Shown: positions 16,327 through 29,578, numbered from the stretch's first letter. The stretch is DNA of 32,000 nucleotides from Methanobacteriaceae archaeon UBA587 (GCA_002504725.1 DATN01000008.1:62851-94850), one strand, 5' to 3'. The notes: generated by a model from the sequence alone, not told the origin. A program made the numbers and translations.

Positions 16327-17397
16327 ATGAAAATTGCAGTAGCTGCAGAATCGGCCCCAGCCCGGACTTTCGTACCCCTCCTGGAAAAACTGGATATGGA
16401 AACCATAGGGTTATCCCACGGGCCCGGGGCAAAAGAACTCCTGCAACCATATTGTAGTGAGATTCATCCCATTGGACAGGGGAGAGGTGCAGGAGCCCAG
16501 AAAAGATCAAATTCCCAGATTGCTAAACTGGTTATTAAGGATATATTAAAGGCCCGCCGTGCTCTCCAGGGCAAGGGAGTGGGTTTAGTTTTAACCTGTG
16601 GAAATGCAGGTGATGTGCGTAAGGCCATATCTGCTGCAAATATACTGCGTATTCCCACTTTACATATTGAACAGGATATCTACAATCCTATTGAAATGAT
16701 TGCCTTTTCTAATCTGATTACAGCTCCTTCTGAGGATTATAAAAATTATCTGGAGAATAATTATTCCCTGAAAAATGTGCACAACATCGGGGGATATCCC
16801 ATGGCAGCTTATGTCAGTAAAATGAATATATTGGGAAAGGAGGAGATCAAAAATCAATATGGTGTTGATGAATTCGTTTTACTGGCATTAGGCGGTGATT
16901 TAAAGGGGGAGGATATTCCCCCACTTATCCAGGTTATGGAATCGCTGGAGAAAACAGTACTGGTGGCACCCTTCCGTTTTAGTCCGGAATTCGTGCGATC
17001 TCAGGTTAGTTCTAATCATATTCGTGTGCTGGATGGATTTGTGGATCTTCCCAGTATAATGAATGCATCCCAGGCCCTGGTTTATGGGGCTGGAATGGGC
17101 ATCACCCTGGAAGCAGGTATTTTAAAGGTGCCTTCCATTAAGATAGCTGGATTTCATCACCAACACGCCAGTGTGGATCTGGCCCGGGTTCTGGGCATAA
17201 AAGTACTGGATATTAATCAGATTCCCTCTGGTTTTGACGATTTAAAGAAACCTGATGGCGACTATTTGGTTGATAGTGCCCAGATTGCCATTAATAATTT
17301 GATTTCATTAATTACTAATTTTAATAATGAAAAAAGATCTAAAAGTGGCTTTAAAAGTTTGAAAAAGATTTGGAATGCCCGCTCACAGTTCCGATAA
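16327..17397 (+). CDS. divergent GT-B (MurG/GT28-like C-terminal half) glycosyltransferase candidate
   Basis: 356-aa ORF with an AGGTG SD. The C-terminal ALVYGAGMGITLEAGILKVPSI resembles the GAG(T)xxExxxxGxPxI nucleotide-sugar motif of MurG-type GT-B enzymes. The N-terminal Gly-rich loop is absent. Confidence 0.4.
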   Translation: MKIAVAAESAPARTFVPLLEKLDMETIGLSHGPGAKELLQPYCSEIHPIGQGRGAGAQKRSNSQIAKLVIKDILKARRALQGKGVGLVLTCGNAGDVRKAISAANILRIPTLHIEQDIYNPIEMIAFSNLITAPSEDYKNYLENNYSLKNVHNIGGYPMAAYVSKMNILGKEEIKNQYGVDEFVLLALGGDLKGEDIPPLIQVMESLEKTVLVAPFRFSPEFVRSQVSSNHIRVLDGFVDLPSIMNASQALVYGAGMGITLEAGILKVPSIKIAGFHHQHASVDLARVLGIKVLDINQIPSGFDDLKKPDGDYLVDSAQIAINNLISLITNFNNEKRSKSGFKSLKKIWNARSQFR

Positions 17398-17509
17398 CTT
17401 GTTCTGCTATTTTATTTTAACACTTTAAGAGATTCTATTTTTTTCATTTTTTTCAATAACCTCTAATTTTCATATTGTATTACCTTTTATACCAATAATA
17501 TTAAATATT

Positions 17510-17528
17510 AATTAAGTATTACTTAATT
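17510..17528. promoter_or_regulatory. perfect 9-1-9 palindrome AATTAAGTA T TACTTAATT upstream of the C39 peptidase gene
   Basis: Read directly; the reverse complement of AATTAAGTA is TACTTAATT. It ends about 20 nt before GGTGAT at 17547. A regulatory role is inferred only. Confidence 0.3.
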
Positions 17529-17547
17529 GTATCAAAATTAATATCAG

Positions 17548-18021
17548 GTGATTGGCATAAAAGGAAGGCAAATTTCTCGTATTGATTCTTGGAATGATTC
17601 CTCGTCCTTAAGGGGAAGATTAAAGCATAAAATTGTAATGCAAAGTACCAGTTACAACTGTGGCCCGGCGGCACTGGCCACGGTAATGAATTACATGGGA
17701 ATTCAGTGCAATGAACAGGATCTGGCCCAACTGGCCGGCACTGATGAGACGGGAACCACCATGTATGGTCTCATGCAAGCAGCACGTAAACGAGGTTTAA
17801 ATGCAAGAGGAGTAAGAAAAAAGGCTGAAAATTTGAGGGTAAGTGATATAGTATTTTTAAATATGGGTGGAAAGACTCATTACAGTGTTATCCATCATTT
17901 GGGGTCAAAGACGGTGATCTTAGCTGATCCATCCTTAGGGGAGATTGAACTGAAAAAGGAGGAATTCCTTAAAATTTACAGTGGAAATGCTCTGGTGTTA
18001 ATGGGAACTCCCTTTGAATAA
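17548..18021 (+). CDS. stand-alone peptidase C39-like cysteine protease domain
   Basis: Q-x5-C context VMQSTSYNCGPAALATVMNYMG, then THYSVIHHLG (His) and ILADPSLGE (Asp), giving a full Gln/Cys/His/Asp set. The start is uncertain: GTG at 17548 lies inside GGTGAT; alternatives are ATA at 17557 and ATG at 17638. Confidence 0.7.
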   Translation: MIGIKGRQISRIDSWNDSSSLRGRLKHKIVMQSTSYNCGPAALATVMNYMGIQCNEQDLAQLAGTDETGTTMYGLMQAARKRGLNARGVRKKAENLRVSDIVFLNMGGKTHYSVIHHLGSKTVILADPSLGEIELKKEEFLKIYSGNALVLMGTPFE

Positions 18022-18237
18022 ACACATTAAAAAAATCATTCAAATTATTTTAAATATTCATAAAATCAATTAAATGAATTTAAATAGGCTAATTATAATA
18101 TATGATTATTATTTTTAATTTTAAACATGTTTAAGGAGTGTTTCTATCAGGATTCATTACTCCTATAAAAACTTAATCATCATAATTAAATCAAAAAGTA
18201 CTTAATATCTCAAGTATTAACACATTTTGGTGATATA

Positions 18238-19068
18238 ATGGTTGTAAAAATCGGTATAATTAAATGTGGTAACATCGGTACCTCTCCTGTCTTGGATTTA
18301 TTACTTGATGAGAGAGCAGACCGACCAAACATAGATGTATGTGTAATCGGTTCTGGGGCTAAGATGAACCCAGAAGAAATCGAAAAAGCCGTACCATTAA
18401 TGCTTGAAATGGAAAGGGACTTTGTTATATTCATAAGCCCTAACCCAGGCGCTCCAGGTCCTGCTAAAGCCAGAGAATTATTATCTGCAGCAGACGTACC
18501 TGCCATCATCATTGGTGACGCTCCAGGGCTACGATCCAAAGACGAAATGGACGAACAAGGTTTAGGATACATCATCGTTAAAGCCGACCCAATGATCGGT
18601 GCACGAAGAGAATTACTGGACCCAACTGAAATGGCTTCATTCAATGCTGACGTAATTAAAGTGTTAGCTTTAACTGGTGCTTACAGAGTTGTACAAAACA
18701 CCATCGACGCTGCAGTCGCAGCTGTTGAAGCTGGAAGCGCAATTGAATTACCTAAAGTGGTAATTTCCCGAGATGTAGCTATTGCAGCTGCTGAATTCTC
18801 TAACCCATATGCTAAAGCTAAAGCCATGGCTGCCTACGACATCGCTACCAAAGTAGCTGATATTGACGTAGAAGGTTGTTTCATGACCAGAGAAGCAGAA
18901 AAATACATACCAATCGTTGCATCTGCTCACGAAATGATTACTACCGCAGCTAAACTCGCAGCTGAAGCTCGAGAAATCGAAAAAGCTAACGACACTGTTG
19001 TCCGAACCCCACACGGTGGACAAGGACAAACCATGGCTAAGTCCGCTTTAATGGACAAACCAGAATAA
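18238..19068 (+). CDS. mtd: F420-dependent methylenetetrahydromethanopterin dehydrogenase
   Basis: 276-aa ORF, MVVKIGIIKCGNIGTSPVLDLLLDERADRPNIDV..., with the characteristic Mtd N-terminus and length. Confidence 0.93.
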   Translation: MVVKIGIIKCGNIGTSPVLDLLLDERADRPNIDVCVIGSGAKMNPEEIEKAVPLMLEMERDFVIFISPNPGAPGPAKARELLSAADVPAIIIGDAPGLRSKDEMDEQGLGYIIVKADPMIGARRELLDPTEMASFNADVIKVLALTGAYRVVQNTIDAAVAAVEAGSAIELPKVVISRDVAIAAAEFSNPYAKAKAMAAYDIATKVADIDVEGCFMTREAEKYIPIVASAHEMITTAAKLAAEAREIEKANDTVVRTPHGGQGQTMAKSALMDKPE

Positions 19069-19080
19069 GTTAGCTAACAA

Positions 19081-19127
19081 GCGGTCCTCTGGACTGCTAA
19101 TATTTTATTTTTTCTTTCTTTTGTTTT
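19081..19127 (+). terminator. hairpin (7-bp stem with one G.U pair, loop tct) followed by a long oligo-T tract after mtd
   Basis: GCGGTCC tct GGACTGC followed by tattttattttttctttcttttgtttt. Archaeal termination typically uses oligo-T tracts. Confidence 0.5.
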
Positions 19128-19318
19128 AATTATCTCATTTTTTAATTAATTGAAAGTTTTTATCAATTCAAACTTGCTCATGGTTATTTATTGATACTTT
19201 TATTGATTATTATAATTTAGAATAAGCACAGAATTCGTATTATTGCATAAAATTATTTTAGATTTATATAGTACTAAATTAATATGTATTATGTAGTATT
19301 GTATTATCAAGGTGAAAT

Positions 19319-20530
19319 ATGATAGAAAATCTAATAGAACGTTTCTTTAAAGCAGCCACCATGGAGCGATGGAATGACCATATTCGTCCTGTGGAACTGA
19401 CCGAACTGGATAAACAGGCTCATAAAATGATCATAGCATACGTCCTGGCTAAAATAGAAGAGGACAGCAGAGGTATTAAGTCTATTAACTGGATCAACCT
19501 TATTGAGGGATTTTTATTTGATTTTCTGTATCGTCTGGTTTTAACTGATCTTAAACCATCAGTTTTTCACCGTATGATGGATGAAAAAAGGGAAGAATTG
19601 AATCAGCACGTTTTAAGAGAATTGAAAACGGACCTGGAAGGTTTAAATGATCCTAATTTTGAGATTAAGTTCAAAAATTATCTTTCCAGTGGCGAGGTAA
19701 CCTTGGAGAGAAAAATTCTCCGGGCAGCCCATTATCTAGCCACGGATTGGGAGTTTAAGATAATCTATAATAGTGCACCATTTATCTATGGAATTGAAAA
19801 AACCAAGGAAAATATAGAGAACCAGATTGAAGATCACTACGATCTGATTGGTGTTCAAAAGATAATGCTTAAGAAGAAGTCTTTTGGATTCATAGATTTA
19901 TGTGGGCAGCTCCGTTTCCAAAAAAGATGGGCCCACACGCCCCGCATACCTGAAACATCGGTATTGGGGCACATGTTGATAGTGGCTGCTACTTCTTACC
20001 TGTGCACCATGGAAATGGGGATAAAACCCTGTGACAAGAGAGTATACAACAACTTTTTTGCGGGTCTGTTTCATGATCTCCCGGAAGTCCTGACTAAAGA
20101 TATTATTTCGCCAGTTAAACAGTCAGTGAAAGGTTTAGATGATATTATAAAGGAATACGAAGATTATCAGATGAAAAAAGAATTACTGCCTCTTCTTCCG
20201 AAAACATGGCACCCTGAAATGCAGTATTTCACTGGAGACGAGTTCAAGAATAAAATCAAGCAAGAAGATGAGGTTAAATTCGTTTCATTCAATGATTTAA
20301 ATAAAAAATACAATGATGATGTTTTCATGCCATTGGACGGAGAATTAATCAAGGCGTGTGATAGGTTAGCTGCTTTTGCCGAGACCAAAATATCATTCCG
20401 GCATGGAGTCACCTCCAAAGACATGGAAGAAGCCCAAAAAACTATGATGGATGAATGGAAATCTAAAAAAGTTTCAGGAATTGATTTTGGTCAAATTTTC
20501 CGAAATTTAGAGAAACTAATCGATGAATAA
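19319..20530 (+). CDS. HD-domain phosphohydrolase family protein
   Basis: 403-aa ORF with VLGHMLIVA ... GLFHDLPEVLTKDI ... ACDRLAAF (H...HD...D metal-ligand pattern). Confidence 0.65.
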   Translation: MIENLIERFFKAATMERWNDHIRPVELTELDKQAHKMIIAYVLAKIEEDSRGIKSINWINLIEGFLFDFLYRLVLTDLKPSVFHRMMDEKREELNQHVLRELKTDLEGLNDPNFEIKFKNYLSSGEVTLERKILRAAHYLATDWEFKIIYNSAPFIYGIEKTKENIENQIEDHYDLIGVQKIMLKKKSFGFIDLCGQLRFQKRWAHTPRIPETSVLGHMLIVAATSYLCTMEMGIKPCDKRVYNNFFAGLFHDLPEVLTKDIISPVKQSVKGLDDIIKEYEDYQMKKELLPLLPKTWHPEMQYFTGDEFKNKIKQEDEVKFVSFNDLNKKYNDDVFMPLDGELIKACDRLAAFAETKISFRHGVTSKDMEEAQKTMMDEWKSKKVSGIDFGQIFRNLEKLIDE

Positions 20531-20897
20531 TGTTATAATAGCCTCAAAGAGAGATATTATGGTTTCAGAAAGGGATTTAAACAGAATATTCGATGATTAT
20601 AATGAAATAATGATTTTTGCATCGTCAAATAGGCAGAAAATAAGTTTGATTGAGGAAAAAACTAATTTTAAAAATACTGAAGAGTTTATGCATCTCATGG
20701 ATTTCATGCAGTTCCAGGTTGCTAAAATTGATTCTGTTTTAGGGATTATTGATGATTTACTATCTGATTACCATCAGATGGCTATTGAAATTGAACCTCA
20801 TGAGTTGAATGGCATGGAACATGATCTAGAAGTCGTTAAAAAGGAATATGTTTCTATTTTAGATCATTGGAGTGATTATGGACAAACTTTTTATTAA
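20523..20897 (+). CDS. hypothetical small helical protein, translationally coupled to the HD protein
   Basis: 124-aa ORF whose ATG overlaps the HD gene end (ATCGATGAATAA, 8-nt overlap). No recognisable motif. Confidence 0.45.
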   Translation: MNNVIIASKRDIMVSERDLNRIFDDYNEIMIFASSNRQKISLIEEKTNFKNTEEFMHLMDFMQFQVAKIDSVLGIIDDLLSDYHQMAIEIEPHELNGMEHDLEVVKKEYVSILDHWSDYGQTFY

Positions 20898-21071
20898 CCT
20901 TATTATATTTTATTTTTAAAAATAAGATTGGAATTCATTTAATTATCAAATTAATTTTATTAGAGGGTTATATATTTTTCTTAAAGTTTAATAATTCTTA
21001 ATTCCCGCTAAATATATCTTATTTTAGTTTTTTCTTTTTTCAAAATATAATTTAGTATTACTATTTTTTTA

Positions 21072-21113
21072 TTAGTATTACAAAAGACCGGGATTTACAC
21101 TGAAAAGTAATAA
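21072..21113 (+). repeat. R1: 42-nt direct repeat copy upstream of the surface locus
   Basis: TTAGTATTACAAAAGACCGGGATTTACACTGAAAAGTAATAA. It matches 37 of 42 positions with 25988-26029 (hand alignment, no gaps). Confidence 0.8.
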
Positions 21114-21172
21114 CACAAAACTAATAAAAAGTATTAAATAGGAATAAAGCCAACCATTTTTTACTAAACGTA

Positions 21173-21559
21173 ATGGAGGTGATAAGTATTAAGAAACAAG
21201 GAATTAAGAGACATATGGTATTACTGAGCTTAACGGTTCTTTTGGCACTGTGTATTTGTGGAGCGGTGTCCGCAGAAGACTTATCAACTACAGGAGGCAA
21301 TGAAACCACTACGGTTGATAATCAGATGGTTGACCCTATTATTGGGATAACTGTGAATTATGAGTATGATTCGGACAAGAACATTAATCCGGAAATAAAG
21401 GTTTACGATACTACTGGTACAAAGATAAATTTCACAAAGACATATTCTGATGCTTTTAAAGCATATCAACTTAGTTTTGATTATTCTGGAGTTGTCAATG
21501 GTACTAAATTCAACATTACAGTTTCAGCACCGGTTATATTACTCAGATGCAGCAGCTGA
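21173..21559 (+). CDS. N-terminal fragment of the large surface protein (signal peptide plus first ~110 aa); the frame breaks near 21530
   Basis: Signal peptide KKQGIKRHMVLLSLTVLLALCICGAVSA/EDL and sequons NET, NFT, NGT, NIT. A full GGAGGTGAT SD at 21175-21183 lies inside the ORF-track start, so initiation may be at ATT 21188 or ATG 21215. Confidence 0.6.
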   Translation: MEVISIKKQGIKRHMVLLSLTVLLALCICGAVSAEDLSTTGGNETTTVDNQMVDPIIGITVNYEYDSDKNINPEIKVYDTTGTKINFTKTYSDAFKAYQLSFDYSGVVNGTKFNITVSAPVILLRCSS

Positions 21560-24195
21560 GTGTTTTCACTTCAGCAACCAATGGTTCTGACCCTAATTAC
21601 TATGGCAATGCGGTCTTCAATATGAAAGCCACGGCAAACTACAAATTAGGAAGGACAGTAACCCAGAAAGCCAACCAGATACTTAACTTCTCTGGTGCAG
21701 ATAGCGTTCTGGTCATAACTACTGCAGGTGTGCCCAAATTGAATGTTGAGACCAGTGAGGACTGTATTGAGGGTATCCTGAATCAGGCCAATGGTTTCAT
21801 AAGCTATGGTAAGGGTAATTTGTTGATGTTACGGCAAACCGCAAATGATCCAGTGGACTTTGCTTTCATAGCTAAGAAAGGAAACACCTTAACCACGGTT
21901 ATATTCAGAAACGGTTCCACAAAACCGGCTTACATTGGCACCATATCTGAGAACATGACTCATGCTCAATGGAACGCCTATGTAAAGAATGTAACCACTG
22001 AAAATGGATTCTCATTTGCCAGCCTGGCCAATGCTTGGGCAGCTGGAGCTCCTAATGATGTATTAAGAGAAGCTGCTTTCCATGGGCACGTCTGTCAAGG
22101 AACACTGGGGGGATACACCATAACCAGGGCATTATTACAGTACTATCCTCCGGTACAAGCTACCATGGGCGGACCTGGATCTCCAGGAGATGTAACTTCC
22201 TATAAAATCCTGGGGGTACCTGGAGACTCTGATGATGATGCAGTAATGTATTTCCTGGATGCTACACCGGGTAAAAGTGGATACGTGGGTTATGATACCA
22301 CTTCTACTGGGGCTACTGTAAGCATGGTGGGATTCATCCGCTGGACCGACACCACCTACAAACTGGTGAACAATACCGACGGAACCCAGTCCTATGTGGT
22401 AAATGTACCGGGAAATGGAACCCTCATAGTAATGAGTTACAATAGAGATGCTAACCAGCAATTATTCATGGCTGAAAAAGGGATAACCACCTTGGGGTCA
22501 CTGGAAGAAATTCAGTTTAATTCATGGATAATTCAGAAAATCTTAACCAACCCTATTAGTCTGGTTAATGTGACCCTGGAATTACAGGGATTGAATGAAA
22601 CTCATTACTACTACCTGGTGGGAACCGCCACTAATATTACGTTCCCTACCACTGCTAATGCCACCAACAAGGGTCAGACCAGATTCAATGCCTCAGAAGC
22701 ACATGGTCTGGATATTGCTTACATCCAGAGTCTGAACCTGCCTAATGCCACCCGTTCCAACAATGTCACTGCCATCGATAACCTGAACTATAATGAAATG
22801 AAGGACATCGGTAAAAGGGCTGCGGAACTGGCAAAACAGATATTCCTAGCCCAGGGTATTGATCTGGAAAAGGATGACATGGACTTAGCTGTTCTGACTT
22901 CTGCAGGTTATGTCTATCTCAACGGACAAACCACCGAAGCAACCTGGGATGGTATTTTTGAAGTTTTAGGTTCCCGTTTAAGTAGGTCTACTCTTCTACC
23001 AATTCATATGGGACTATGGAAACCATTATGGTTTGACTTTGTCCTGAGAGGATTTGATGGAACCACCATGAGTAATGTGTACCTTAGATACAACCCCAAC
23101 AATGATACCTTCTTTATAGGTAACAATACGGCTACTGATGGTAATTTAGTAAATGACATTGGACCTGCTGCTTTAAACAATGCTAGTAAAGTAGGTAATC
23201 TGAGCAAGTACGTTATTCCTGATGGAAACTGGTTCAATATCCAGAGTATTGCCAATGCCTGGAGAAATGACCCATCATTCGACCAGTTGATAACCTTCCT
23301 CTTCCACGACCACGCCTGTCCGGGAGTACAGCCCGGATTCTTTATAACGGACTATATCTTCCAAAACTATCCATTAAGTGGCAATCAGAGCTACTTCTGG
23401 ATGGCATCCAGTATCTACTGTAAGGACGACAGTCTGGTCTACTTACTGGGCGTTTCTCCTGGAATGGGAAGCTATATGAACCAAAGACTCACTGGTGAAG
23501 AAACTTCCTCTGAATATCTGCCTGGCGGAACTGAGGAAGGAGTGATAGTAGTCTGGGATCCAGATACCAACACGGGAAAGGCAGCCATAATAAGTTTCAA
23601 ATGGCCTACCTATAACTTAGCAGGTCTCACTACCAGTGAAGCTCAAAGGGAAGCCATGATATCTGCATTTGTAGCTCTTTACAAAGGACAAAACAGTCCC
23701 TATATTGCGACTCCCCTGAGTATTGTTACTTCTGAAGAGAAGTATATCACTAAAGAAGAATTCGACCTTATTAAACAGGGTGGAACTGCTTCTGCAAGTG
23801 CTTTAGCTTTCCTAAAGGGTTTACCAGTACGATCCTTATCTGATCTGATACCTGCTGTTGATGATGGTTCAGATGATGGTAATGATGATGGTAATGATGA
23901 TGGAAGCAATGATGGATCCAACAATGGTGGTTCTCATAATGGAGGATCTCACTCTAATGGAGGTGCATCTGTTGGTGAAAGTTCTGTAGCGGTTTCTGCA
24001 GCTTCTGAAACTACCGAAGCTGGTGATGATTCCTCTTCATCTGGTAAAAAAGCCTACGAGGTTACCAAAAATAACAGCAACACTTCTAGTGGAGATAACA
24101 TGGGCTGGTATATTTATGGTCTGATTGGTATCTTTGCTCTGGGTGGATTAGTTGGATTTGGTTTCCTGCGAGGAGGACTCGGTGGAAAAGTATAA
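21547..24195 (+). CDS. large sequon-rich surface protein with two FmdE-like FHxHxCxG modules, a D/G/N/S stalk and a C-terminal TM anchor; probably continuous with 21173-21559
   Basis: 882-aa ORF with ANAWAAGAPNDVLREAAFHGHVCQGTLGGY (22078-22101) and ANAWRNDPSFDQLITFLFHDHACPGVQPGFF (23302-23325). I count about 20 N-x-S/T sequons by eye. C-terminal GWYIYGLIGIFALGGLVGFGFLRGGLGGKV. It has no signal peptide of its own, and its frame is open upstream to 21508. Confidence 0.7.
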   Translation: MQQLSVFTSATNGSDPNYYGNAVFNMKATANYKLGRTVTQKANQILNFSGADSVLVITTAGVPKLNVETSEDCIEGILNQANGFISYGKGNLLMLRQTANDPVDFAFIAKKGNTLTTVIFRNGSTKPAYIGTISENMTHAQWNAYVKNVTTENGFSFASLANAWAAGAPNDVLREAAFHGHVCQGTLGGYTITRALLQYYPPVQATMGGPGSPGDVTSYKILGVPGDSDDDAVMYFLDATPGKSGYVGYDTTSTGATVSMVGFIRWTDTTYKLVNNTDGTQSYVVNVPGNGTLIVMSYNRDANQQLFMAEKGITTLGSLEEIQFNSWIIQKILTNPISLVNVTLELQGLNETHYYYLVGTATNITFPTTANATNKGQTRFNASEAHGLDIAYIQSLNLPNATRSNNVTAIDNLNYNEMKDIGKRAAELAKQIFLAQGIDLEKDDMDLAVLTSAGYVYLNGQTTEATWDGIFEVLGSRLSRSTLLPIHMGLWKPLWFDFVLRGFDGTTMSNVYLRYNPNNDTFFIGNNTATDGNLVNDIGPAALNNASKVGNLSKYVIPDGNWFNIQSIANAWRNDPSFDQLITFLFHDHACPGVQPGFFITDYIFQNYPLSGNQSYFWMASSIYCKDDSLVYLLGVSPGMGSYMNQRLTGEETSSEYLPGGTEEGVIVVWDPDTNTGKAAIISFKWPTYNLAGLTTSEAQREAMISAFVALYKGQNSPYIATPLSIVTSEEKYITKEEFDLIKQGGTASASALAFLKGLPVRSLSDLIPAVDDGSDDGNDDGNDDGSNDGSNNGGSHNGGSHSNGGASVGESSVAVSAASETTEAGDDSSSSGKKAYEVTKNNSNTSSGDNMGWYIYGLIGIFALGGLVGFGFLRGGLGGKV
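23860..23919 (+). repeat. in-frame 12-bp tandem repeat (GATGATGGTNNN x5, last two units degenerate) encoding DDGS/DDGN
   Basis: gatgatggttca gatgatggtaat gatgatggtaat gatgatggaagc aatgatggatcc, read directly. Confidence 0.8.
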
Positions 24196-24223
24196 GTAAA
24201 TCAACATTAGAATCCGGGGTTTT

Positions 24224-24257
24224 TTGCTGGATACTCCAGCAACCCTTTATTTTTTTA
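24224..24257 (+). terminator. perfect 8-bp hairpin (TTGCTGGA tac TCCAGCAA) followed by a T-tract
   Basis: Read directly, 29 nt after the stop of the large ORF, followed by ccctttattttttt. Confidence 0.5.
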
Positions 24258-24327
24258 ATAAAAATTTAATCGTATTAACTACAATCAATTGCCATTTTAA
24301 CTCTTAAAACTAAATGGAGGTGGGAAC

Positions 24328-24756
24328 ATAAAAAAAGAGATCATAATCTTAATAACTGCTTCAATTCTTTTAACCAGCATGGGTGTTGTAGTGGCTCACC
24401 CCGGGCATGGGGATTATTATCCCGATGAGGTGACCTTTAATGATACTTCCAGTGGAAGTTCCAGTGATAATTATGATAAAAATACTAATACTGGATCTGA
24501 TGCTTCTTCTTCGTCATCATCGTCTTCATCTCCCTCTTCTTCGGATACCTCATCTAAAGAATCAGATGAGGGAACTTCCAACACCAGTGCCGATACTGGC
24601 GGTGTAGAAGAAGTAACTGATGTTAATAATTCTACCAACTATCCATCTAAAAATTCTGATAACATGCCTGGGGATATTCTTTCACTAATGGTGGTATTTG
24701 GGATGGGTTTTGGCGCAGTAATTGCTTTATCTAAACTAGGACTATTATCCAAATAA
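24328..24756 (+). CDS. small secreted Ser-rich protein with predicted N-terminal His after signal cleavage and a C-terminal TM anchor (putative AUA start)
   Basis: The ORF track starts at ATG 24379 (MGVVVAHPGHG), which has no SD and leaves no signal peptide. GGAGGTG at 24316-24322 places ATA 24328 at canonical spacing and yields (M)KKEIIILITASILLTSMGVVVA/HPGHGDYYPDE. The frame is open from 24301 with no ATG, GTG or TTG before 24379. Confidence 0.5.
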   Translation: MKKEIIILITASILLTSMGVVVAHPGHGDYYPDEVTFNDTSSGSSSDNYDKNTNTGSDASSSSSSSSSPSSSDTSSKESDEGTSNTSADTGGVEEVTDVNNSTNYPSKNSDNMPGDILSLMVVFGMGFGAVIALSKLGLLSK

Positions 24757-24821
24757 GATGAAGTATATTTCTTCAATTTATATTTTAAATAGAGTTTTAA
24801 TCAAAGGAGGAGGATTTATTC

Positions 24822-25445
24822 TTGCATTTACCTGACGGACTTTTACCTTTAGGGCAATCAATGATTTACTTTATTATAGTACTGATACCCTTGGCTTTAT
24901 ATTTCTTTAAACTTTCTAAAAACGATTCTAAAGAGAAAATAATTGTAAGCACAGGAATACTTTCAGCTGCAGCTATTGCAGGGTCTTCTATATCCATACC
25001 CTCTCCATTCGGGGTTCCCATACACTTTTTTATAATCCCCTTAGCTGCAATATTGGTAGGGCCTTTGAGCGGGGTTATGGTGGCATTTTTATGTCTTTTG
25101 GTGCAGTTCCTATTTTTGGGGATGGGAGGCATCACCTCATTAGGGGCCAATGTCTTTACCATGGGGATAATGATAAGCTGTTCCACCTACTTTTTCTACA
25201 AGCTGACCCTAGATTTAAATGAAAAATTGGCGGTATTCTGTGGTACACTGCTGGGAATAATAATGGGGACCATAACTCAAGTTTTCATATTGGTGTTAGC
25301 AGGTGTGGCCACCTTTGAAATGTTACTGGCTTCATTGATACCATTTTATTTATTCATAGCAGTACTTGAAGGGGCCGTAAATGTTTTCATAATATCTTTT
25401 ATCTCTAAAATTAAACCAGAGATGTTAAAAATGGATAAAATTTGA
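24822..25445 (+). CDS. cbiM: CbiM/NikM-family metal (Co/Ni) transporter substrate-capture membrane protein
   Basis: TTG start after AGGAGGAGGA gives the N-terminus MHLPDGLL, matching the conserved CbiM/NikM M-H-x-x-D-G metal-binding N-terminus. 207 aa, multi-TM. Confidence 0.75.
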   Translation: MHLPDGLLPLGQSMIYFIIVLIPLALYFFKLSKNDSKEKIIVSTGILSAAAIAGSSISIPSPFGVPIHFFIIPLAAILVGPLSGVMVAFLCLLVQFLFLGMGGITSLGANVFTMGIMISCSTYFFYKLTLDLNEKLAVFCGTLLGIIMGTITQVFILVLAGVATFEMLLASLIPFYLFIAVLEGAVNVFIISFISKIKPEMLKMDKI

Positions 25446-25470
25446 ATTATAATCTTAAGGAGACTTTAAA

Positions 25471-25941
25471 GTGAATATTAAATTAATTACTTTTCTAATA
25501 ATTTTTTTTGGAATGATAAATACCGTCCATGCCCACGGTGTGGATGTTACCAATCAATCAGTGATTGTAATTGCGGATAATTCCACTGGAGTCATGGTTA
25601 AAAAACTGGCAAATGAGATGGGCCTCAATGTTTCAGTATACAACTTTAAATCAGCGGCTGATGTTGAACACCAATTAGAGCATGCTCTTTCCGATCCTAA
25701 CAAGAGAATTCTTGCAGTAGCCTATCAGGACACAGTAAATCTATTTATATCTGAAAATCCATCTGTTTCCAATAGAATTTTTGTAAGTTCTGCCAATGAA
25801 ACTGATATTAAAAATGGGTTAATGCTACTGACAGACAATACAAATAGCGGTTTCTTGCTTCCCTTTGCAACTGGTTTGCTGGTGGGGTTGATGGCAGGTC
25901 TGGGTTTAGGTGCCTTCTGGACGAAAAGGAAAAATTCATAA
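25471..25941 (+). CDS. secreted/bitopic protein with predicted N-terminal His and a C-terminal TM anchor, in the position usually held by cbiN
   Basis: GTG start 8 nt after AAGGAG. MNIKLITFLIIFFGMINTVHA/HGVDVTNQS; C-terminal TDNTNSGFLLPFATGLLVGLMAGLGLGAFWTKRKNS. No sequence similarity to CbiN recognised. Confidence 0.5.
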   Translation: MNIKLITFLIIFFGMINTVHAHGVDVTNQSVIVIADNSTGVMVKKLANEMGLNVSVYNFKSAADVEHQLEHALSDPNKRILAVAYQDTVNLFISENPSVSNRIFVSSANETDIKNGLMLLTDNTNSGFLLPFATGLLVGLMAGLGLGAFWTKRKNS

Positions 25942-25987
25942 TATTTTTGTAATTTTTTCCCTTTGCACCTTTTTTCATAACTTTATT

Positions 25988-26029
25988 TTAGTATTAAAAA
26001 AGACCTTGATTTCCAGTGAAAAGTAATAA
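25988..26029 (+). repeat. R2: 42-nt direct repeat copy downstream of the surface locus
   Basis: TTAGTATTAAAAAAGACCTTGATTTCCAGTGAAAAGTAATAA, matching R1 at 37 of 42 positions. Confidence 0.8.
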
Positions 26030-26367
26030 AAAATTACATTAAAAATAAATATTTTTCATTATAGATAGAGGAGCCCATATTGATATATCTCCTCCTACAA
26101 TCATTATAGTATTTATTTTTGATCTATGTGGAAAATGATAACTGCCTTGACTATTAGTGCTATAAAACCATTAAATGATAATTTTCATAAAGGATTCTTT
26201 AAGGAATTAATCAGTAAATTTCTCCCGAAATTTTTGGCTTTAAACAAAAAAGAAAATTGAGTTTTCCTGGAAGTGGATTGAATTTAAAATATGAAATTAG
26301 GGCGGGTGAAATATACATCCCTTTTTTCTAAGCTAGTCCTAATTAACATCAATGTTAAAAGGGATAT

Positions 26368-26949
26368 TTATAAGACGCCTTTGGTACTGGGTATCTGATC
26401 GTGTTCCACCTGCACAGCATCCTTTAATGCCCGGGCTAGAGCCTTAAACAAGGCTTCGATCTGGTGGTGATCATTTTCTCCTTCCACCCGAGCATTGATG
26501 TTTATATGGGCGCTGTGAGCAAATGATTCCAGGAAGTGTTCCACATTTTCTGTGGAAAGATCCCCTACTTGAGGTTTGTGGAAGTTCATGTCCATGATAC
26601 AGTAGCTCCGGCCACTAATATCCACTGCTACGGTGGCCAGTGCCTCGTCCATAGGGACAATTGAGTGGGCTATTCTTTTTATTCCTTTTTTATCTCCCAC
26701 TACTTCTTTAAATACTTCTCCTAATAGTATTCCCACATCTTCCACGGTGTGGTGGTCGTCTACTTCCACATCTCCCTGGGCACGGATTTCCAGATCAAAG
26801 AATCCGTGTCTGGCAAAGGATTCCAGCATATGGTCCAGGAAGTCCACTCCAGTTTCAACAGTATACTGTCCCTTTCCATCCAGGTTTAAAGAAATATCAA
26901 TTTCTGTTTCAGAAGTTTTTCTTTTCTTAGAACTTTCCCTTGGCATCAT
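26368..26949 (-). CDS. hisB: imidazoleglycerol-phosphate dehydratase
   Basis: [33 protein letters not shown] ... [11 protein letters not shown] ... [19 protein letters not shown]. The ORF extends to 26964, and several Met codons at 26946-26964 are possible starts. Confidence 0.9.
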
Positions 26950-27145
26950 TATCATCTCTAACAATTTTTATGGCTTGTTCGGGACATTTACCCGCACAAA
27001 TAGTGCACTGGTGGCAGAATTCTAGATTATCTGCAACCGCTTTTTTTGATTTCTTGTCAATACTCCAGATCACTCCTCCTTTAGGACAAGCTTCCAGGCA
27101 AGTTCCGCAGCCGGTACATTTATTTTTGTCAACTAGAATTTTCAT
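26927..27145 (-). CDS. 2x[4Fe-4S] ferredoxin
   Basis: 72 aa with [12 protein letters not shown] and [12 protein letters not shown] cluster motifs. Confidence 0.85.
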
Positions 27146-27214
27146 AAGTTAACCTCTTCTCATGCTTTGATGATTTTCGATGTTATTTTACCTTTTTTCT
27201 CATATTTCCTTAGA

Positions 27215-27249
27215 TTATAAGTTATAAGTTATAACTTCTAAGTTATAAG
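27215..27249. repeat. heptad array C: TTATAAG TTATAAG TTATAAC TTCTAAG TTATAAG
   Basis: Read directly. It lies 10 nt beyond the stop of the ModE-like gene and about 70-105 nt upstream of the ferredoxin start (minus strand). Confidence 0.85.
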
Positions 27250-27258
27250 ATATAATAA

Positions 27259-27954
27259 TTAAATTTTAATTAAAGATAGTGATGTAGCTTTAAATCCCAC
27301 AAAAACCTTTTTTTCAAGACTTAATTCCAATTTTTCCCAAGAATATTTTGTAATATCTACTAAAACCGTAATAACAGGGTCTAAGGCTACTTTAAGTCTT
27401 ACCATTTCGTTTTTTATTTCCATACTCACTATTTTTCCTTCCACAATATTCCTCACACTGGATTCTTGGGGCTGGAGCATTATGAAAATATCTTCTGGGC
27501 TGATTAGAATTAAGACATTGTCTCCTTCCTCAAAGTTTTCAATTAGAGGAAGTAAAACTTCGTTTTTTCCAATTTTAATATTCATTACCCGATTATCTAA
27601 ATCTAGAGAACTTACCTTACCTTCTATTTCATTCAAATTGGAGTGTTTTTTCAGTATCTGGTTTAGTTTAGTGAATTCTCTAAGAATTAATTTTCCTGTA
27701 TCTGAGAGTTCACTCCCTCCCCCGCCCCCTTTACCTCCTCTTTGGGTAAATACCACTGGAGTTCCCACGATTTTCTCTATGACTTCAATGTATTTTAGAG
27801 CAGTTCGGTAGGGAACCCGGGACTTTTTAGAGGCTTTAGTAATAGAACCACAGTTATCAATGCTTTTCAACAGACGAAATTTTTTTTCGTCCATGAGCAG
27901 ATATTTATCTCCTATCTGCAACTGATATTCGGGGATATCTCTAGAATTAGTCAT
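27259..27954 (-). CDS. ModE-like regulator: N-terminal HTH (ModE N-terminal type) + C-terminal TOBE domain
   Basis: SITKASKKSRVPYRTALKYIEVIE...QRGGKGGGGGSELSDTGK (ModE-type HTH with the Gly-rich turn). The C-terminal half is beta-rich and TOBE-like (RNIVEGKIVSMEIKNEMVRLKVAL). Confidence 0.7.
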   Translation of the reverse strand: MTNSRDIPEYQLQIGDKYLLMDEKKFRLLKSIDNCGSITKASKKSRVPYRTALKYIEVIEKIVGTPVVFTQRGGKGGGGGSELSDTGKLILREFTKLNQILKKHSNLNEIEGKVSSLDLDNRVMNIKIGKNEVLLPLIENFEEGDNVLILISPEDIFIMLQPQESSVRNIVEGKIVSMEIKNEMVRLKVALDPVITVLVDITKYSWEKLELSLEKKVFVGFKATSLSLIKI

Positions 27955-28015
27955 TTAGACACCTTTTTTATTATTTTATGGTTTAGACTTGATAAATTTA
28001 ACCAATAATAATGAA

Positions 28016-29578
28016 TTAGGCCGGTGTGTACTTATCAATAACCTTTATAATTCTTTCGCAGGGTCCTGATAAAGGCCCTAACCTGCCTGTGATACGGCGC
28101 ATCATGCGGATGTCTCTTTTTTCAAATCCTTTAAGTAAAGTAAATGCCGTTACGAATATCAGAGGAGATACTATAATGGCTAAAATTAATCCTAATATTG
28201 TCTGAGGAATAAAGAAAATTCCCAGGCCCATAACTATTGAAGCAAGAGCTATCTTAAGGAAAGCCAAATAGGGTGGTTTAATTTGGGTAATTTGAAATGT
28301 TTTCCACATTACTACTACCATTATAATGAATGTGGAGATGGTTGTAGCTCCAGCTGCACCTTCTATACCAAAAATTGGCACCATAATTAAATTCAGGACT
28401 ATATTGATTGCAGTACCTCCTAAAAGAACGTACATGGGCATTCTAGGATTTCCTATCCCTTGGGCAATACTGGAAGAAGTCATAAATAAACTATAAAATG
28501 CCATTCCCATAACCAGTATAGTTAAGGCCCCGGCACCAAAAACGTACTGACTACCAAATAACAAATCTAAGATAGGATATGAAAATAGGGCAATTCCCAC
28601 ACATATAGGGAACACTGTTAAAATTACAATACGGTAAGATTGGACAACATAAGTCTCTAAAAGAGCCTTATCCTTTAAACTAAATGCTTCTGATGCTGCA
28701 GGAAGTACAGCTGTTGCCACAGAAAGCGAAATTACCAGAGGCAGTCTTGCTATGGGATCCGCGGTGGTATAGTAACTGGCAAATTTGGTTACTAAGAAGA
28801 TACCTATTACAAAAACGCCCACGTCATATATGGCCATTTCTGAAAGTGCGGTTATAATAACTGGGATAGAGAATTTCAAAAGATTGGCCATTAATCCTAA
28901 TTCCTGGCGGAAATTGAATTGATCTTCGGGGTCTGGTTTGGGAAGATATTTGTATAAATATTTTTTGAATATAAGCACGGCAGATATAGCGGAGGCCATA
29001 AAACCGAGTCCAGTACCAATAACCGCTCCTGCGGCATAGAAACCTGCTGAAACCAGAACTACTGCAAAAACAATCATGAAAATTTGTTCAACAGCACGAG
29101 TAGCCACAATATATTCCATTTTATAAAGTCCCTGAAAAGCGCCCCGGAAGGCCCCTACAATTACACTGAAGGGGGTGATTAATGCGACTGCTTGCAAGGG
29201 ATAAGCTAAAAGAGGTTTATGAAAGACTTCATTGGCTATGAATGGACCCGCAAAGAACATAAATAATGAGAATATTATTCCCAGAAACATCATAAGTTTA
29301 AGAGAAGTGAAAACTACTTGGCGGGCCATCTGGTCTTCACCAAGGGCTTTATGCTGGGATACATATTTAGCAATTGCAGGGGGCAGCCCTCCAGCTGAAA
29401 GTATCTGAAAAATGCCTTGGAAAGGTAAAGTTAGACCTACTAATCCATATTGTTCAGGACCTAGCATTCTGGCCATTAGAACCCGGTATACATAACCCCC
29501 AACTCTAAAAATGAGGTTACTAATCATTATAATGGTGCTGCCGCGTAGTAATTTTGCTGTGCCCTTACTTGTATTCAT
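28016..29578 (-). CDS. MOP-superfamily polysaccharide/oligosaccharide flippase (Wzx/MurJ-like)
   Basis: 520-aa ORF with about 14 TM segments. N-terminal MISNLIFRVGGYVYRVLMARMLGPEQYGL is typical of polysaccharide-biosynthesis flippases. Confidence 0.8.
   Translation of the reverse strand: MNTSKGTAKLLRGSTIIMISNLIFRVGGYVYRVLMARMLGPEQYGLVGLTLPFQGIFQILSAGGLPPAIAKYVSQHKALGEDQMARQVVFTSLKLMMFLGIIFSLFMFFAGPFIANEVFHKPLLAYPLQAVALITPFSVIVGAFRGAFQGLYKMEYIVATRAVEQIFMIVFAVVLVSAGFYAAGAVIGTGLGFMASAISAVLIFKKYLYKYLPKPDPEDQFNFRQELGLMANLLKFSIPVIITALSEMAIYDVGVFVIGIFLVTKFASYYTTADPIARLPLVISLSVATAVLPAASEAFSLKDKALLETYVVQSYRIVILTVFPICVGIALFSYPILDLLFGSQYVFGAGALTILVMGMAFYSLFMTSSSIAQGIGNPRMPMYVLLGGTAINIVLNLIMVPIFGIEGAAGATTISTFIIMVVVMWKTFQITQIKPPYLAFLKIALASIVMGLGIFFIPQTILGLILAIIVSPLIFVTAFTLLKGFEKRDIRMMRRITGRLGPLSGPCERIIKVIDKYTPA

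Follow-up and report, generated by a model that had tools for sequence, protein, structure and literature searches.

Nickel is indispensable to hydrogenotrophic methanogens, which require it for the F430 of methyl-coenzyme M reductase, for the [NiFe] hydrogenases and for CODH/ACS. The uptake systems closest to the one considered here are those of the NikMNQO/CbiMNQO type, represented by TtNikM2 (4M58) and RcCbiMQO (5X3X), and of the NikKMLQO type, reported only in bacteria, in which an extracytoplasmic NikK and a membrane protein NikL replace NikN. A comparative survey of 2009 listed archaea with only the NikMN1QO and NikMN2QO types, and the route by which methanogens acquire nickel at natural nanomolar levels was left without a transporter by the 2011 Methanothermobacter genome paper, which stated that none had been identified. 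Here we describe a cluster of four genes (genes i to iv), all on the plus strand, at positions 21173-25941 of a 32,000-nucleotide stretch of DNA from Methanobacteriaceae archaeon UBA587 (GCA_002504725.1, DATN01000008.1:62851-94850), which as a whole is called the window. The cluster probably encodes a system for the surface capture and uptake of nickel that is induced by nickel starvation, is built on a NikM-like permease and is specific to the Methanobacteriales. No paper describing the cluster was found in a literature search.

A first-pass annotation of the window had read the locus as four consecutive genes on the same strand, and they lie where it placed them. Gene i had been described as a protein of roughly 1000 amino acids (aa) spread over two frames, with a signal peptide, N-x-S/T sequons, two FHxHxCxG modules, a stalk and a transmembrane anchor; gene ii as a Ser-rich, anchored protein whose mature N-terminus is HPGHGDYYPDE; gene iii as a CbiM/NikM-like protein that begins MHLPDG; and gene iv as an anchored protein whose mature N-terminus is HGVDV. 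All of these features are recovered in the analyses given below. From them the annotation had proposed a surface pathway that captures a metal and hands it to a CbiM-type permease, the metal being Ni, Co, Cu or Mo/W.

The nickel response of orthologous proteins

Among these metals, independent published proteomics points most likely to nickel, and copper and molybdenum/tungsten are not favoured. In a 2025 Nature paper, Methanothermobacter marburgensis was grown in nickel-limited chemostats (PMC12350162, supplementary file 8). The intensity of MTBMA_c10580, a 105-kDa "uncharacterized protein", was 1.3-2.6e7 at 5 uM nickel and 5.5-7.3e9 at 250, 125, 50 and 10 nM nickel, an increase of about 330-fold that brings it to about 3% of the summed intensity; under iron limitation the protein falls, and under H2/CO2 limitation it is flat (PMC12350162). 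MTBMA_c10580 is D9PWQ4, which is 47% identical to gene i over its full length. Since it falls in the same 90% cluster as the gene i homologue P0054, it is the orthologue of gene i. The main text of the proteomics paper makes no mention of it.

Other products respond to the same limitation. The protein c10530, which by gene order is ExbB, increases about 30-40-fold and was labelled "Transporter" and suggested as a nickel transporter by the authors of that study; c10540, by gene order DUF2162, was detected only under limitation; and MTBMA_c06490, which by gene order is the probable orthologue of gene iv, increases about 17-21-fold (PMC12350162). A second proteomics paper, of 2026, treated the M. 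wolfeii orthologue of gene i (A0A9E7RTD5) as a cytoplasmic, FmdE-binding stress protein (PMC13355700), a reading that overlooks the predicted signal peptide and anchor.

Gene i: an exported protein with tandem FmdE modules

Known FmdE/FwdE-like proteins (2GLZ, 2GVI, 3D00) are cytoplasmic dimers of about 150-200 aa, often with a zinc ribbon and in part encoded within fmd/fwd operons. A crystal study of FmdE found a solvent-exposed site formed by His15, His17, Cys19 and Cys55, with mixed Zn/Ni occupancy (mainly Zn, some Ni), and noted that metal-ion transporter genes adjoin most members of the family (PMC2954224). The modules of gene i have the same fold and the same predicted metal site, FHxHxC...CxxD, and are true members of the family; the context, however, is unprecedented, since two copies are embedded in modules of about 330 aa within an exported, sequon-rich, membrane-anchored protein of about 1000 aa. 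No fmd or fwd genes are present within the window.

This assignment is carried by several lines of evidence. The Pfam model FmdE (PF02663) matches gene i in two stretches (E=1.7e-19, 70.7 bits against a gathering cut-off of 22.9) and is present in 120 of 120 homologues among the matches listed. The two modules of about 330 aa are an internal duplication, with 26% identity (E=2e-14). In an alignment of 18 sequences, the module 2 ligands H698, H700, C702 and C736, the last of which lies in YCKDD, are invariant, as are those of module 1 save the fourth, where an invariant Ser stands in place of the distal Cys; these metal-ligand residues are kept although the homologues are only 41-50% identical overall. 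An AlphaFold (AF2) model made from 18 homologues (pLDDT 76, pTM 0.76) has a beta-sandwich at its N-terminus and then two alpha/beta plus FmdE modules. Its top Foldseek match in the PDB is 2glz (probability 1.0, TM(target) 0.54), the modest E-value of 0.015 reflecting the many domains of the query. A profile of the whole protein, compared with PDB sequences, gave no meaningful match.

When the two frames are fused, the product has 1007 residues. A hydrophobic signal segment (residues 15-33) ends in ...AVSA/ED, where the slash, here and below, marks the predicted cleavage site; FHGHVCQG and FHDHACPG are found at residues 303 and 711, and a stalk rich in S, G, D and N precedes a C-terminal transmembrane segment at 981-1001. 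The protein contains 25 N-x-S/T sequons, compared with 13.3 +/- 3.2 in composition-matched shuffles.

The interruption of the frame can be judged from a 12-kb contig, L006, which is 99.1% identical to the window with identical gene order and in which gene i is intact, encoding 985 aa. At 21530 the window reads CAGCAC-CGG where L006 reads CAGCACAGGG. The change is compound (AG to C), unlike a slip in a homopolymer. Since the gene is whole in so close a relative, the two sequences do differ at this point, whether the window acquired the frameshift by mutation or in assembly. The stalk repeat is also 24 nucleotides (nt), or two units, longer in the window than in L006, so stalk length is polymorphic.

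The C-terminus of gene i (low-complexity stalk, AYEV[ST]K and transmembrane anchor; window 24040-24195) matches the C-terminus of NF004645, the NCBIfam model of long CobN proteins, with E=9e-4. A CobN-like protein of Methanothermobacter (L001, 11080-15954) has a signal peptide at its N-terminus. Together these observations suggest a common surface-anchoring module, possibly a sorting signal.

Genes ii, iii and iv: a permease and two proteins with predicted N-terminal histidines

Gene iii is matched over its full length by Pfam CbiM (PF01891; E=1.1e-40, 140.1 bits). When aligned to NikM2 (4M58) and CbiM (5X3X), it keeps Met1-His2 and the equivalent of His67, and its start, MHLPDG, is nearer to the MHIPEG of NikM2 than to the MHIMEG of CbiM. 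No CbiN, CbiQ or CbiO gene was found near gene iii in the window or adjoining the permease in about 50 related loci, and because N, Q and O genes are missing from its vicinity, gene iii falls outside the operon-level definition of CbiMNQO/NikMNQO.

The protein of gene ii has a predicted cleavage site, ...VVVA/HPGHGDYYPDE, a 70-residue Ser-rich linker and a C-terminal transmembrane segment; A/HPGHG is invariant in about 45 loci. Ahead of the signal peptide no ATG, GTG or TTG is present, the in-frame reading being NIKKEIIILITASILLTSMGVVVA. A Shine-Dalgarno sequence, GGAGGTG, is followed after 5 nt by an ATA (24328), which occupies the place of the ATG of a relative (MKKEV...); with no canonical start available, this ATA is the probable start of the gene. 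The 5' DNA of gene ii is identical in L006. The string AATGGAGGTG is common to the 5' ends of genes i and ii. A frameshifted gene i and a gene ii that probably starts with ATA point to reduced function in this genome, where the system may be partly disabled.

Gene iv begins with GTG and encodes ...VHA/HGVDV and a C-terminal transmembrane segment. Its model shows a small, four-stranded, flavodoxin-like domain between the signal helix and the transmembrane helix. The family has 40 representatives among 1.84 billion proteins, the named members all being Methanobacteriales, and in these homologues A/HG, DVxHxLxH and AYQD vary little or not at all. Neither gene ii nor gene iv matches a Pfam or NCBIfam family, gene iv not even at E up to 1, and both lie outside any described family. 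The candidates CbiN, NikN and PDGLE were rejected for both proteins, given the lack of such matches and a topology of signal plus C-terminal anchor. Also rejected were a relationship of gene iv to DUF2149 (hhalign probability 0.4%) and a specific fold relative for it, since its matches are only generic ones of the flavodoxin-like/Rossmann 2x2 type.

Conservation of the gene set

Scanning a single genome for each species yielded 53 loci that encode the large FmdE protein. Essentially all belong to the Methanobacteriales, together with one metagenome-assembled genome (MAG) labelled Methanomicrobiales and a few contigs that are probably mis-binned. The gene set is kept in Methanobacterium, Methanothermobacter, Methanobrevibacter and Methanosphaera. 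In the 26 loci with enough flanking DNA for neighbours to be counted, the CbiM-like gene is present in 23, always with gene iv directly after it, and in 31 of 45 loci the gene next downstream of that for the FmdE protein is gene ii. The order i-ii-iii-iv is found in Methanobacterium and Methanosphaera; in Methanobrevibacter, iii-iv is divergent from i-ii; and in Methanothermobacter, ii-iii-iv forms a separate unit. Thus, the order is rearranged between genera by divergence, insertion and splitting, but the partners stay together. Recurrence of the set in dozens of species excludes chance as the origin of the arrangement.

Other genes recur beside the cluster, including DUF2162-ExbB-DUF2149 (11 of the 26 loci), an exported CobN-like protein (7 of 26) and nicotianamine synthase (NAS; 4 of 26); none of these is present in the window. 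DUF2149 has a single transmembrane segment with an ExbD-like Asp (LVDAMLVLAVG). This segment, with its conserved Asp, is ExbD/TolR-like, and DUF2149 always follows an ExbB-family gene (L001, 16151-17850; L002, 12955-14693). The idea that DUF2162 is a distant relative of CbiM was rejected (hhalign probability 0.5%).

Promoters and candidate operator boxes

De novo word statistics on the intergenic regions of all loci picked out the palindrome GTAWTAC, seven letters long and frequently preceded by an A (AGTAWTAC). Its density is 3.19/kb ahead of cluster genes versus 0.46/kb in 217 other intergenic regions, about a 7-fold difference, while nine control palindromic heptamers of matched composition were flat. 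Upstream of gene i there is a GTATTAC-N13-GTATTAC arrangement at 21055-21081, with one-mismatch boxes at 21107 and 21131. In Methanothermobacter, three of the four boxes in 18.9 kb fall in the promoters of NAS and of the FmdE protein, and a further 18.5 kb has a sole box, 85 bp ahead of ii-CbiM-iv; in this genus the boxes are located in promoters of the nickel-induced genes.

Published NikR operators have the form GTGTTAC-N13/14-GTAACAC, which the arrangement in the window resembles in its half-site and its 27-bp layout. The GTAWTAC boxes may be sites for a nickel-responsive, probably NikR-like repressor. The strict NikR dyad is not supported as the general form of the operator, since box spacings vary across loci, and for the same reason the assignment to NikR is one that we infer. 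Control by a NiCo or cobalamin riboswitch was rejected, positions 17000-27000 giving no match in Rfam at E up to 1. Between genes i and ii a hairpin, a T-run and a new TATA-like tract suggest that a second transcription unit begins there, so that the four genes would form two units. The co-conservation asked for by the first-pass annotation is borne out; the apparent split between genes i and ii is a correction to its reading.

A model for nickel capture and uptake

The favoured explanation, a nickel-starvation system built on the NikM-like permease, can be pictured in the following way. At low nickel, a nickel-responsive repressor, probably NikR-like, would leave the GTAWTAC boxes that overlap the promoters. 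The gene i protein would then be exported and held by its C-terminal anchor on a flexible D/G/N/S stalk, where, in or beyond the pseudomurein wall, its two FmdE modules would bind Ni(II) through His-x-His-x-Cys (plus Cys or Ser), making it an abundant capture protein of high capacity. Signal cleavage would leave a free amino-terminal His on the products of genes ii and iv, the former presenting HPGHG as a hook at the end of a long tether rich in Ser, and the latter a small alpha/beta domain that bears HG together with an HxxxH motif. These two proteins would replace CbiN/NikN and pass nickel by ligand exchange to the gene iii permease, whose N-terminal amine, His2 and His68 may bind it in the manner of NikM2. 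Power could come from a shared energy-coupling factor (ECF) module encoded elsewhere or, in relatives, from the adjacent proton motor of ExbB and the ExbD-like DUF2149. A more far-reaching version, which we hold only tentatively and consider rather doubtful, is that the locus represents an unrecognised type of metal import in the Methanobacteriales, in which nickel capture by the extracellular FmdE domains of an abundant, wall-spanning protein, two His hooks and a stand-alone NikM-like permease are driven by an ExbB/DUF2149 motor that acts on the C-terminal anchors in a TonB-like manner and replaces the ECF ATPase. The FmdE family would thereby gain its first defined biochemical role.

The earlier proposal of surface capture and hand-off to a CbiM-type permease is supported, every computable test of it having come out in its favour. 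Both gene i modules fall in FmdE and the permease in CbiM when searched with Pfam hidden Markov models; in genes i, ii and iv a signal-type N-terminus is combined with a C-terminal anchor; the AlphaFold model of gene i has an FmdE-like protein as its top structural match; and the gene set is kept across four genera.

Several points weigh against the nickel reading. The proteomic data come from another genus, in which gene i is 47% identical, and cover limitation for Ni, Fe and H2/CO2 but not for Co or Zn; in those data the orthologues of gene ii and of the CbiM-like gene are undetected, and c06490 and c10530 are identified by gene order alone. In the genome studied here gene i is broken by the frameshift, and its module 1 is without the fourth Cys ligand. 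Gene iii scores below all 12 NCBIfam equivalog cut-offs for CbiM (best 112.3 bits versus 219), and the window contains no energising module. Only 9 of 79 promoters contain the N12-14 dyad when up to one mismatch is allowed, and box spacings peak at N25, N14, N17 and N11. Metal binding, hand-off, energy coupling, signal-peptide cleavage, transport and glycosylation are all steps that we infer.

Three other explanations have been weighed. An unlikely one keeps the same architecture but takes the substrate to be a nickel chelate, either a nicotianamine-type metallophore made by NAS or a metallo-tetrapyrrole (F430, corrinoid). The exported CobN-like protein would then strip the metal outside the cell as an HmuS-type dechelatase powered by ExbB/DUF2149, and the FmdE protein would serve as receptor or transfer station. 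This idea draws on the position of NAS, which lies within a few kb of the cluster in Methanothermobacter and several Methanobacterium loci and whose promoter has the GTAWTAC boxes, although NAS is near so few of the loci counted, and the CobN-like gene near only 7 of them, while the window has neither, nor ExbB, DUF2149 or DUF2162. The succession of an exported CobN-like protein and DUF2162-ExbB-DUF2149 also parallels HmuS-T-U-V of Bacteroidota, in which HmuS is a proven heme dechelatase; the Asp in the DUF2149 transmembrane segment fits such a motor, and the literature calls the role of archaeal CobN homologues unclear. Nevertheless, the CbiM/NikM site is suited to a bare ion, and CobN pieces are barely detected in the nickel-limitation proteome. 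A still smaller chance is given to cobalt uptake, or to broad scavenging of Co, Zn and Ni, with the nickel response of the orthologues arising by cross-regulation. The best NCBIfam and Pfam names for gene iii are indeed those of the cobalt transporter CbiM, but its MHLPDG start points toward NikM2, and the Methanobacteriales already encode separate CbiMNQO sets. Likewise, the predominance of Zn in the FmdE crystal site, the nominal identity of the CobN-like neighbours as cobaltochelatase subunits and the omission of Co and Zn from the limitations applied leave room for other metals; against this stand an induction of about 330-fold that is specific to nickel when compared with limitation for Fe and for H2/CO2, and boxes that look like NikR half-sites.

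The remaining explanation, which we regard as quite improbable, denies the FmdE protein and its two small anchored partners any part in transport. They would instead act in the envelope or in the stress response, for example in wall remodelling or a nickel-sparing change of the surface, and would adjoin the permease through inherited synteny. Some synteny is to be expected among four genera of one order; yet the partners remain together where the gene order has been rearranged. An Ig-like N-terminal domain, as in surface and adhesin proteins, and a 3.3-fold increase of the M. wolfeii orthologue under thermal stress (PMC13355700) are compatible with an envelope function, as is the loss of gene i by frameshift in this genome, whereas the invariance of the metal-ligand residues at low overall identity, the cis-element common to the promoters and the co-induction of the gene iv and ExbB orthologues by nickel limitation are not what such a function would lead one to expect.

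If the nickel-capture reading is true, it would account for an unexplained nickel-starvation protein that reaches about 3% of the summed proteome intensity, would give a role to the long-enigmatic FmdE domain and would show a CbiM-type permease working with new partners. The cluster is found throughout the order that dominates methanogenesis in the rumen and the human gut (Methanobrevibacter, Methanosphaera), and vaccines or inhibitors for methane mitigation would then have targets in its products that are exposed at the surface and specific to the lineage.

Features of the locus and its genomic setting

Coordinates of the features discussed, in window positions (TM, transmembrane; ORF, open reading frame)
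Feature	Position	Strand	Remarks
Gene i promoter/operator region: TATA-like AAAATATAA tract, then exact GTATTAC boxes at 21055-21061 and 21075-21081	21040..21137	+	
Gene i N-terminal fragment: predicted signal peptide and Ig-like/transthyretin-like domain; frame lost near 21530	21173..21559	+	128 aa
Frameshift site in gene i; window 1 nt short of contig L006	21528..21533	+	contig comparison
Gene i main ORF: two ~330-aa modules (alpha/beta pre-domain plus FmdE core each), stalk, TM anchor	21547..24195	+	882 aa
FmdE module 1, predicted metal motif FHGHVCQG	22078..22101	+	His, His, Cys invariant in 18 homologues; 4th ligand position Ser
FmdE module 2, predicted metal motif FHDHACPG	23302..23325	+	with downstream invariant YCKDD, full His/His/Cys/Cys tetrad
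12-nt tandem repeat TGATGATGGTAA, 3.8 copies, encoding DDG(S/N) stalk units	23859..23903	+	
Gene i C-terminal TM anchor, conserved AYEV[ST]K motif just before	24112..24174	+	
Gene i-ii interval: hairpin GCTGGA-TACT-CCAGC, T-run, A/T-rich TATA-like tract, one-mismatch box GTATTAA at 24272	24226..24278	+	read from sequence
Gene ii: probable ATA start at 24328, predicted signal peptide, His codon 24397 (mature HPGHG), Ser-rich linker, C-terminal TM segment	24328..24756	+	
Gene iii: CbiM/NikM-type S-component-like permease, TTG start, MHLPDG	24822..25445	+	207 aa
Gene iv: predicted signal peptide, His codon 25534 (mature HG), four-stranded flavodoxin-like ectodomain with DVxHxLxH, C-terminal TM segment	25471..25941	+	

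The source of the window is a member of the Methanobacteriales, and in the DNA outside the cluster are mtd (18238-19068), hisB, part of fae-hps and further housekeeping genes of methanogens. Among the matches listed, the nearest relatives of the gene i product are from Methanobacterium: an uncultured contig (98% identity) and M. oryzae (70%).

The only other exact intergenic GTAWTAC boxes in the 32 kb, at 17477 and 17516 (17477-17522), lie upstream of a C39-peptidase-like ORF (17548-18021) that is itself ahead of mtd. The synthesis of Mtd is nickel-regulated in Methanothermobacter, and the regulator of the cluster may therefore also control mtd here.

Downstream of the cluster, the minus strand at 26368-29578 encodes hisB, a 2x[4Fe-4S] ferredoxin, a ModE-N/TOBE regulator and a MurJ/Wzx-like flippase, a run for which Methanobrevibacter millerae (L004) shows synteny. 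The ModE/TOBE regulator (27259-27954) invites a Mo/W reading of the locus, which was rejected: regulator, ferredoxin and hisB are housekeeping neighbours that are syntenic in Methanobrevibacter too and absent from the cluster in Methanosphaera and Methanothermobacter. In other genera the run, flippase included, does not accompany the cluster, and it therefore provides no evidence for Mo/W.

Relatives offer further variations. A Methanobacterium genome (L007, 1-7473 and 16042-16878) has two tandem FmdE paralogues of about 1000 aa, with an exported CobN-like protein that contains a CarboxypepD_reg domain ahead of them; NAS and a conventional cytoplasmic gene for FmdE plus zinc ribbon are located a few kb from there. 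In Methanothermobacter the large FmdE paralogues number at least four (the clusters of P0052, P0054, P0059 and P0065). In the MAG labelled Methanomicrobiales (L057), a complete i-ii-iii-iv set is found together with NAS and a CobN-like gene on one contig, the permease showing 66% identity; this cluster reflects either mis-binning or lateral transfer outside the order.

Comparison with known systems

Metal sites formed by an amino-terminal residue are familiar from CopC (His1-Pro2), PmoB (His-Gly), the histidine brace of lytic polysaccharide monooxygenases and the Ni-hook of nickel superoxide dismutase (NiSOD), and bind Cu or, in NiSOD, Ni via Cys. Genes ii and iv likewise have a mature N-terminus that begins with His by predicted signal cleavage and is invariant in each (HPGHG and HG, respectively). 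They differ in that there is no relation of sequence or fold, in being a tethered peptide or small domain and not enzymes, and in the metal, which is probably nickel.

The Bacteroidota system HmuSTUV, which consists of the CobN-like dechelatase HmuS, HmuT, the ExbB-like HmuU and the DUF2149 protein HmuV, has ExbB and DUF2149 beside a CobN-family protein, as do relatives of the cluster, and the DUF2162-ExbB-DUF2149 of methanogens mirrors HmuT-U-V. In contrast, the corresponding genes lie outside this window, and archaea have no outer membrane or TonB-dependent receptor.

The closest likeness is to the nickel and cobalt transporters themselves. Gene iii belongs to the CbiM family, as do the M components of NikMNQO and CbiMNQO, and shares with them the residues of the square-planar metal site, but its constant partners, unlike theirs, are two unrelated single-pass proteins with a predicted N-terminal His, usually joined by the FmdE protein of about 1000 aa. 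NikKMLQO follows the same principle, in that a NikM-based transporter has dedicated extracytoplasmic accessory proteins instead of an N component; in the present cluster, however, the QO genes are absent, and genes ii and iv combine a cleavable signal, a C-terminal anchor and a predicted free N-terminal His. Consequently, what is new in the cluster is best read as NikM-based nickel uptake with new accessory parts.

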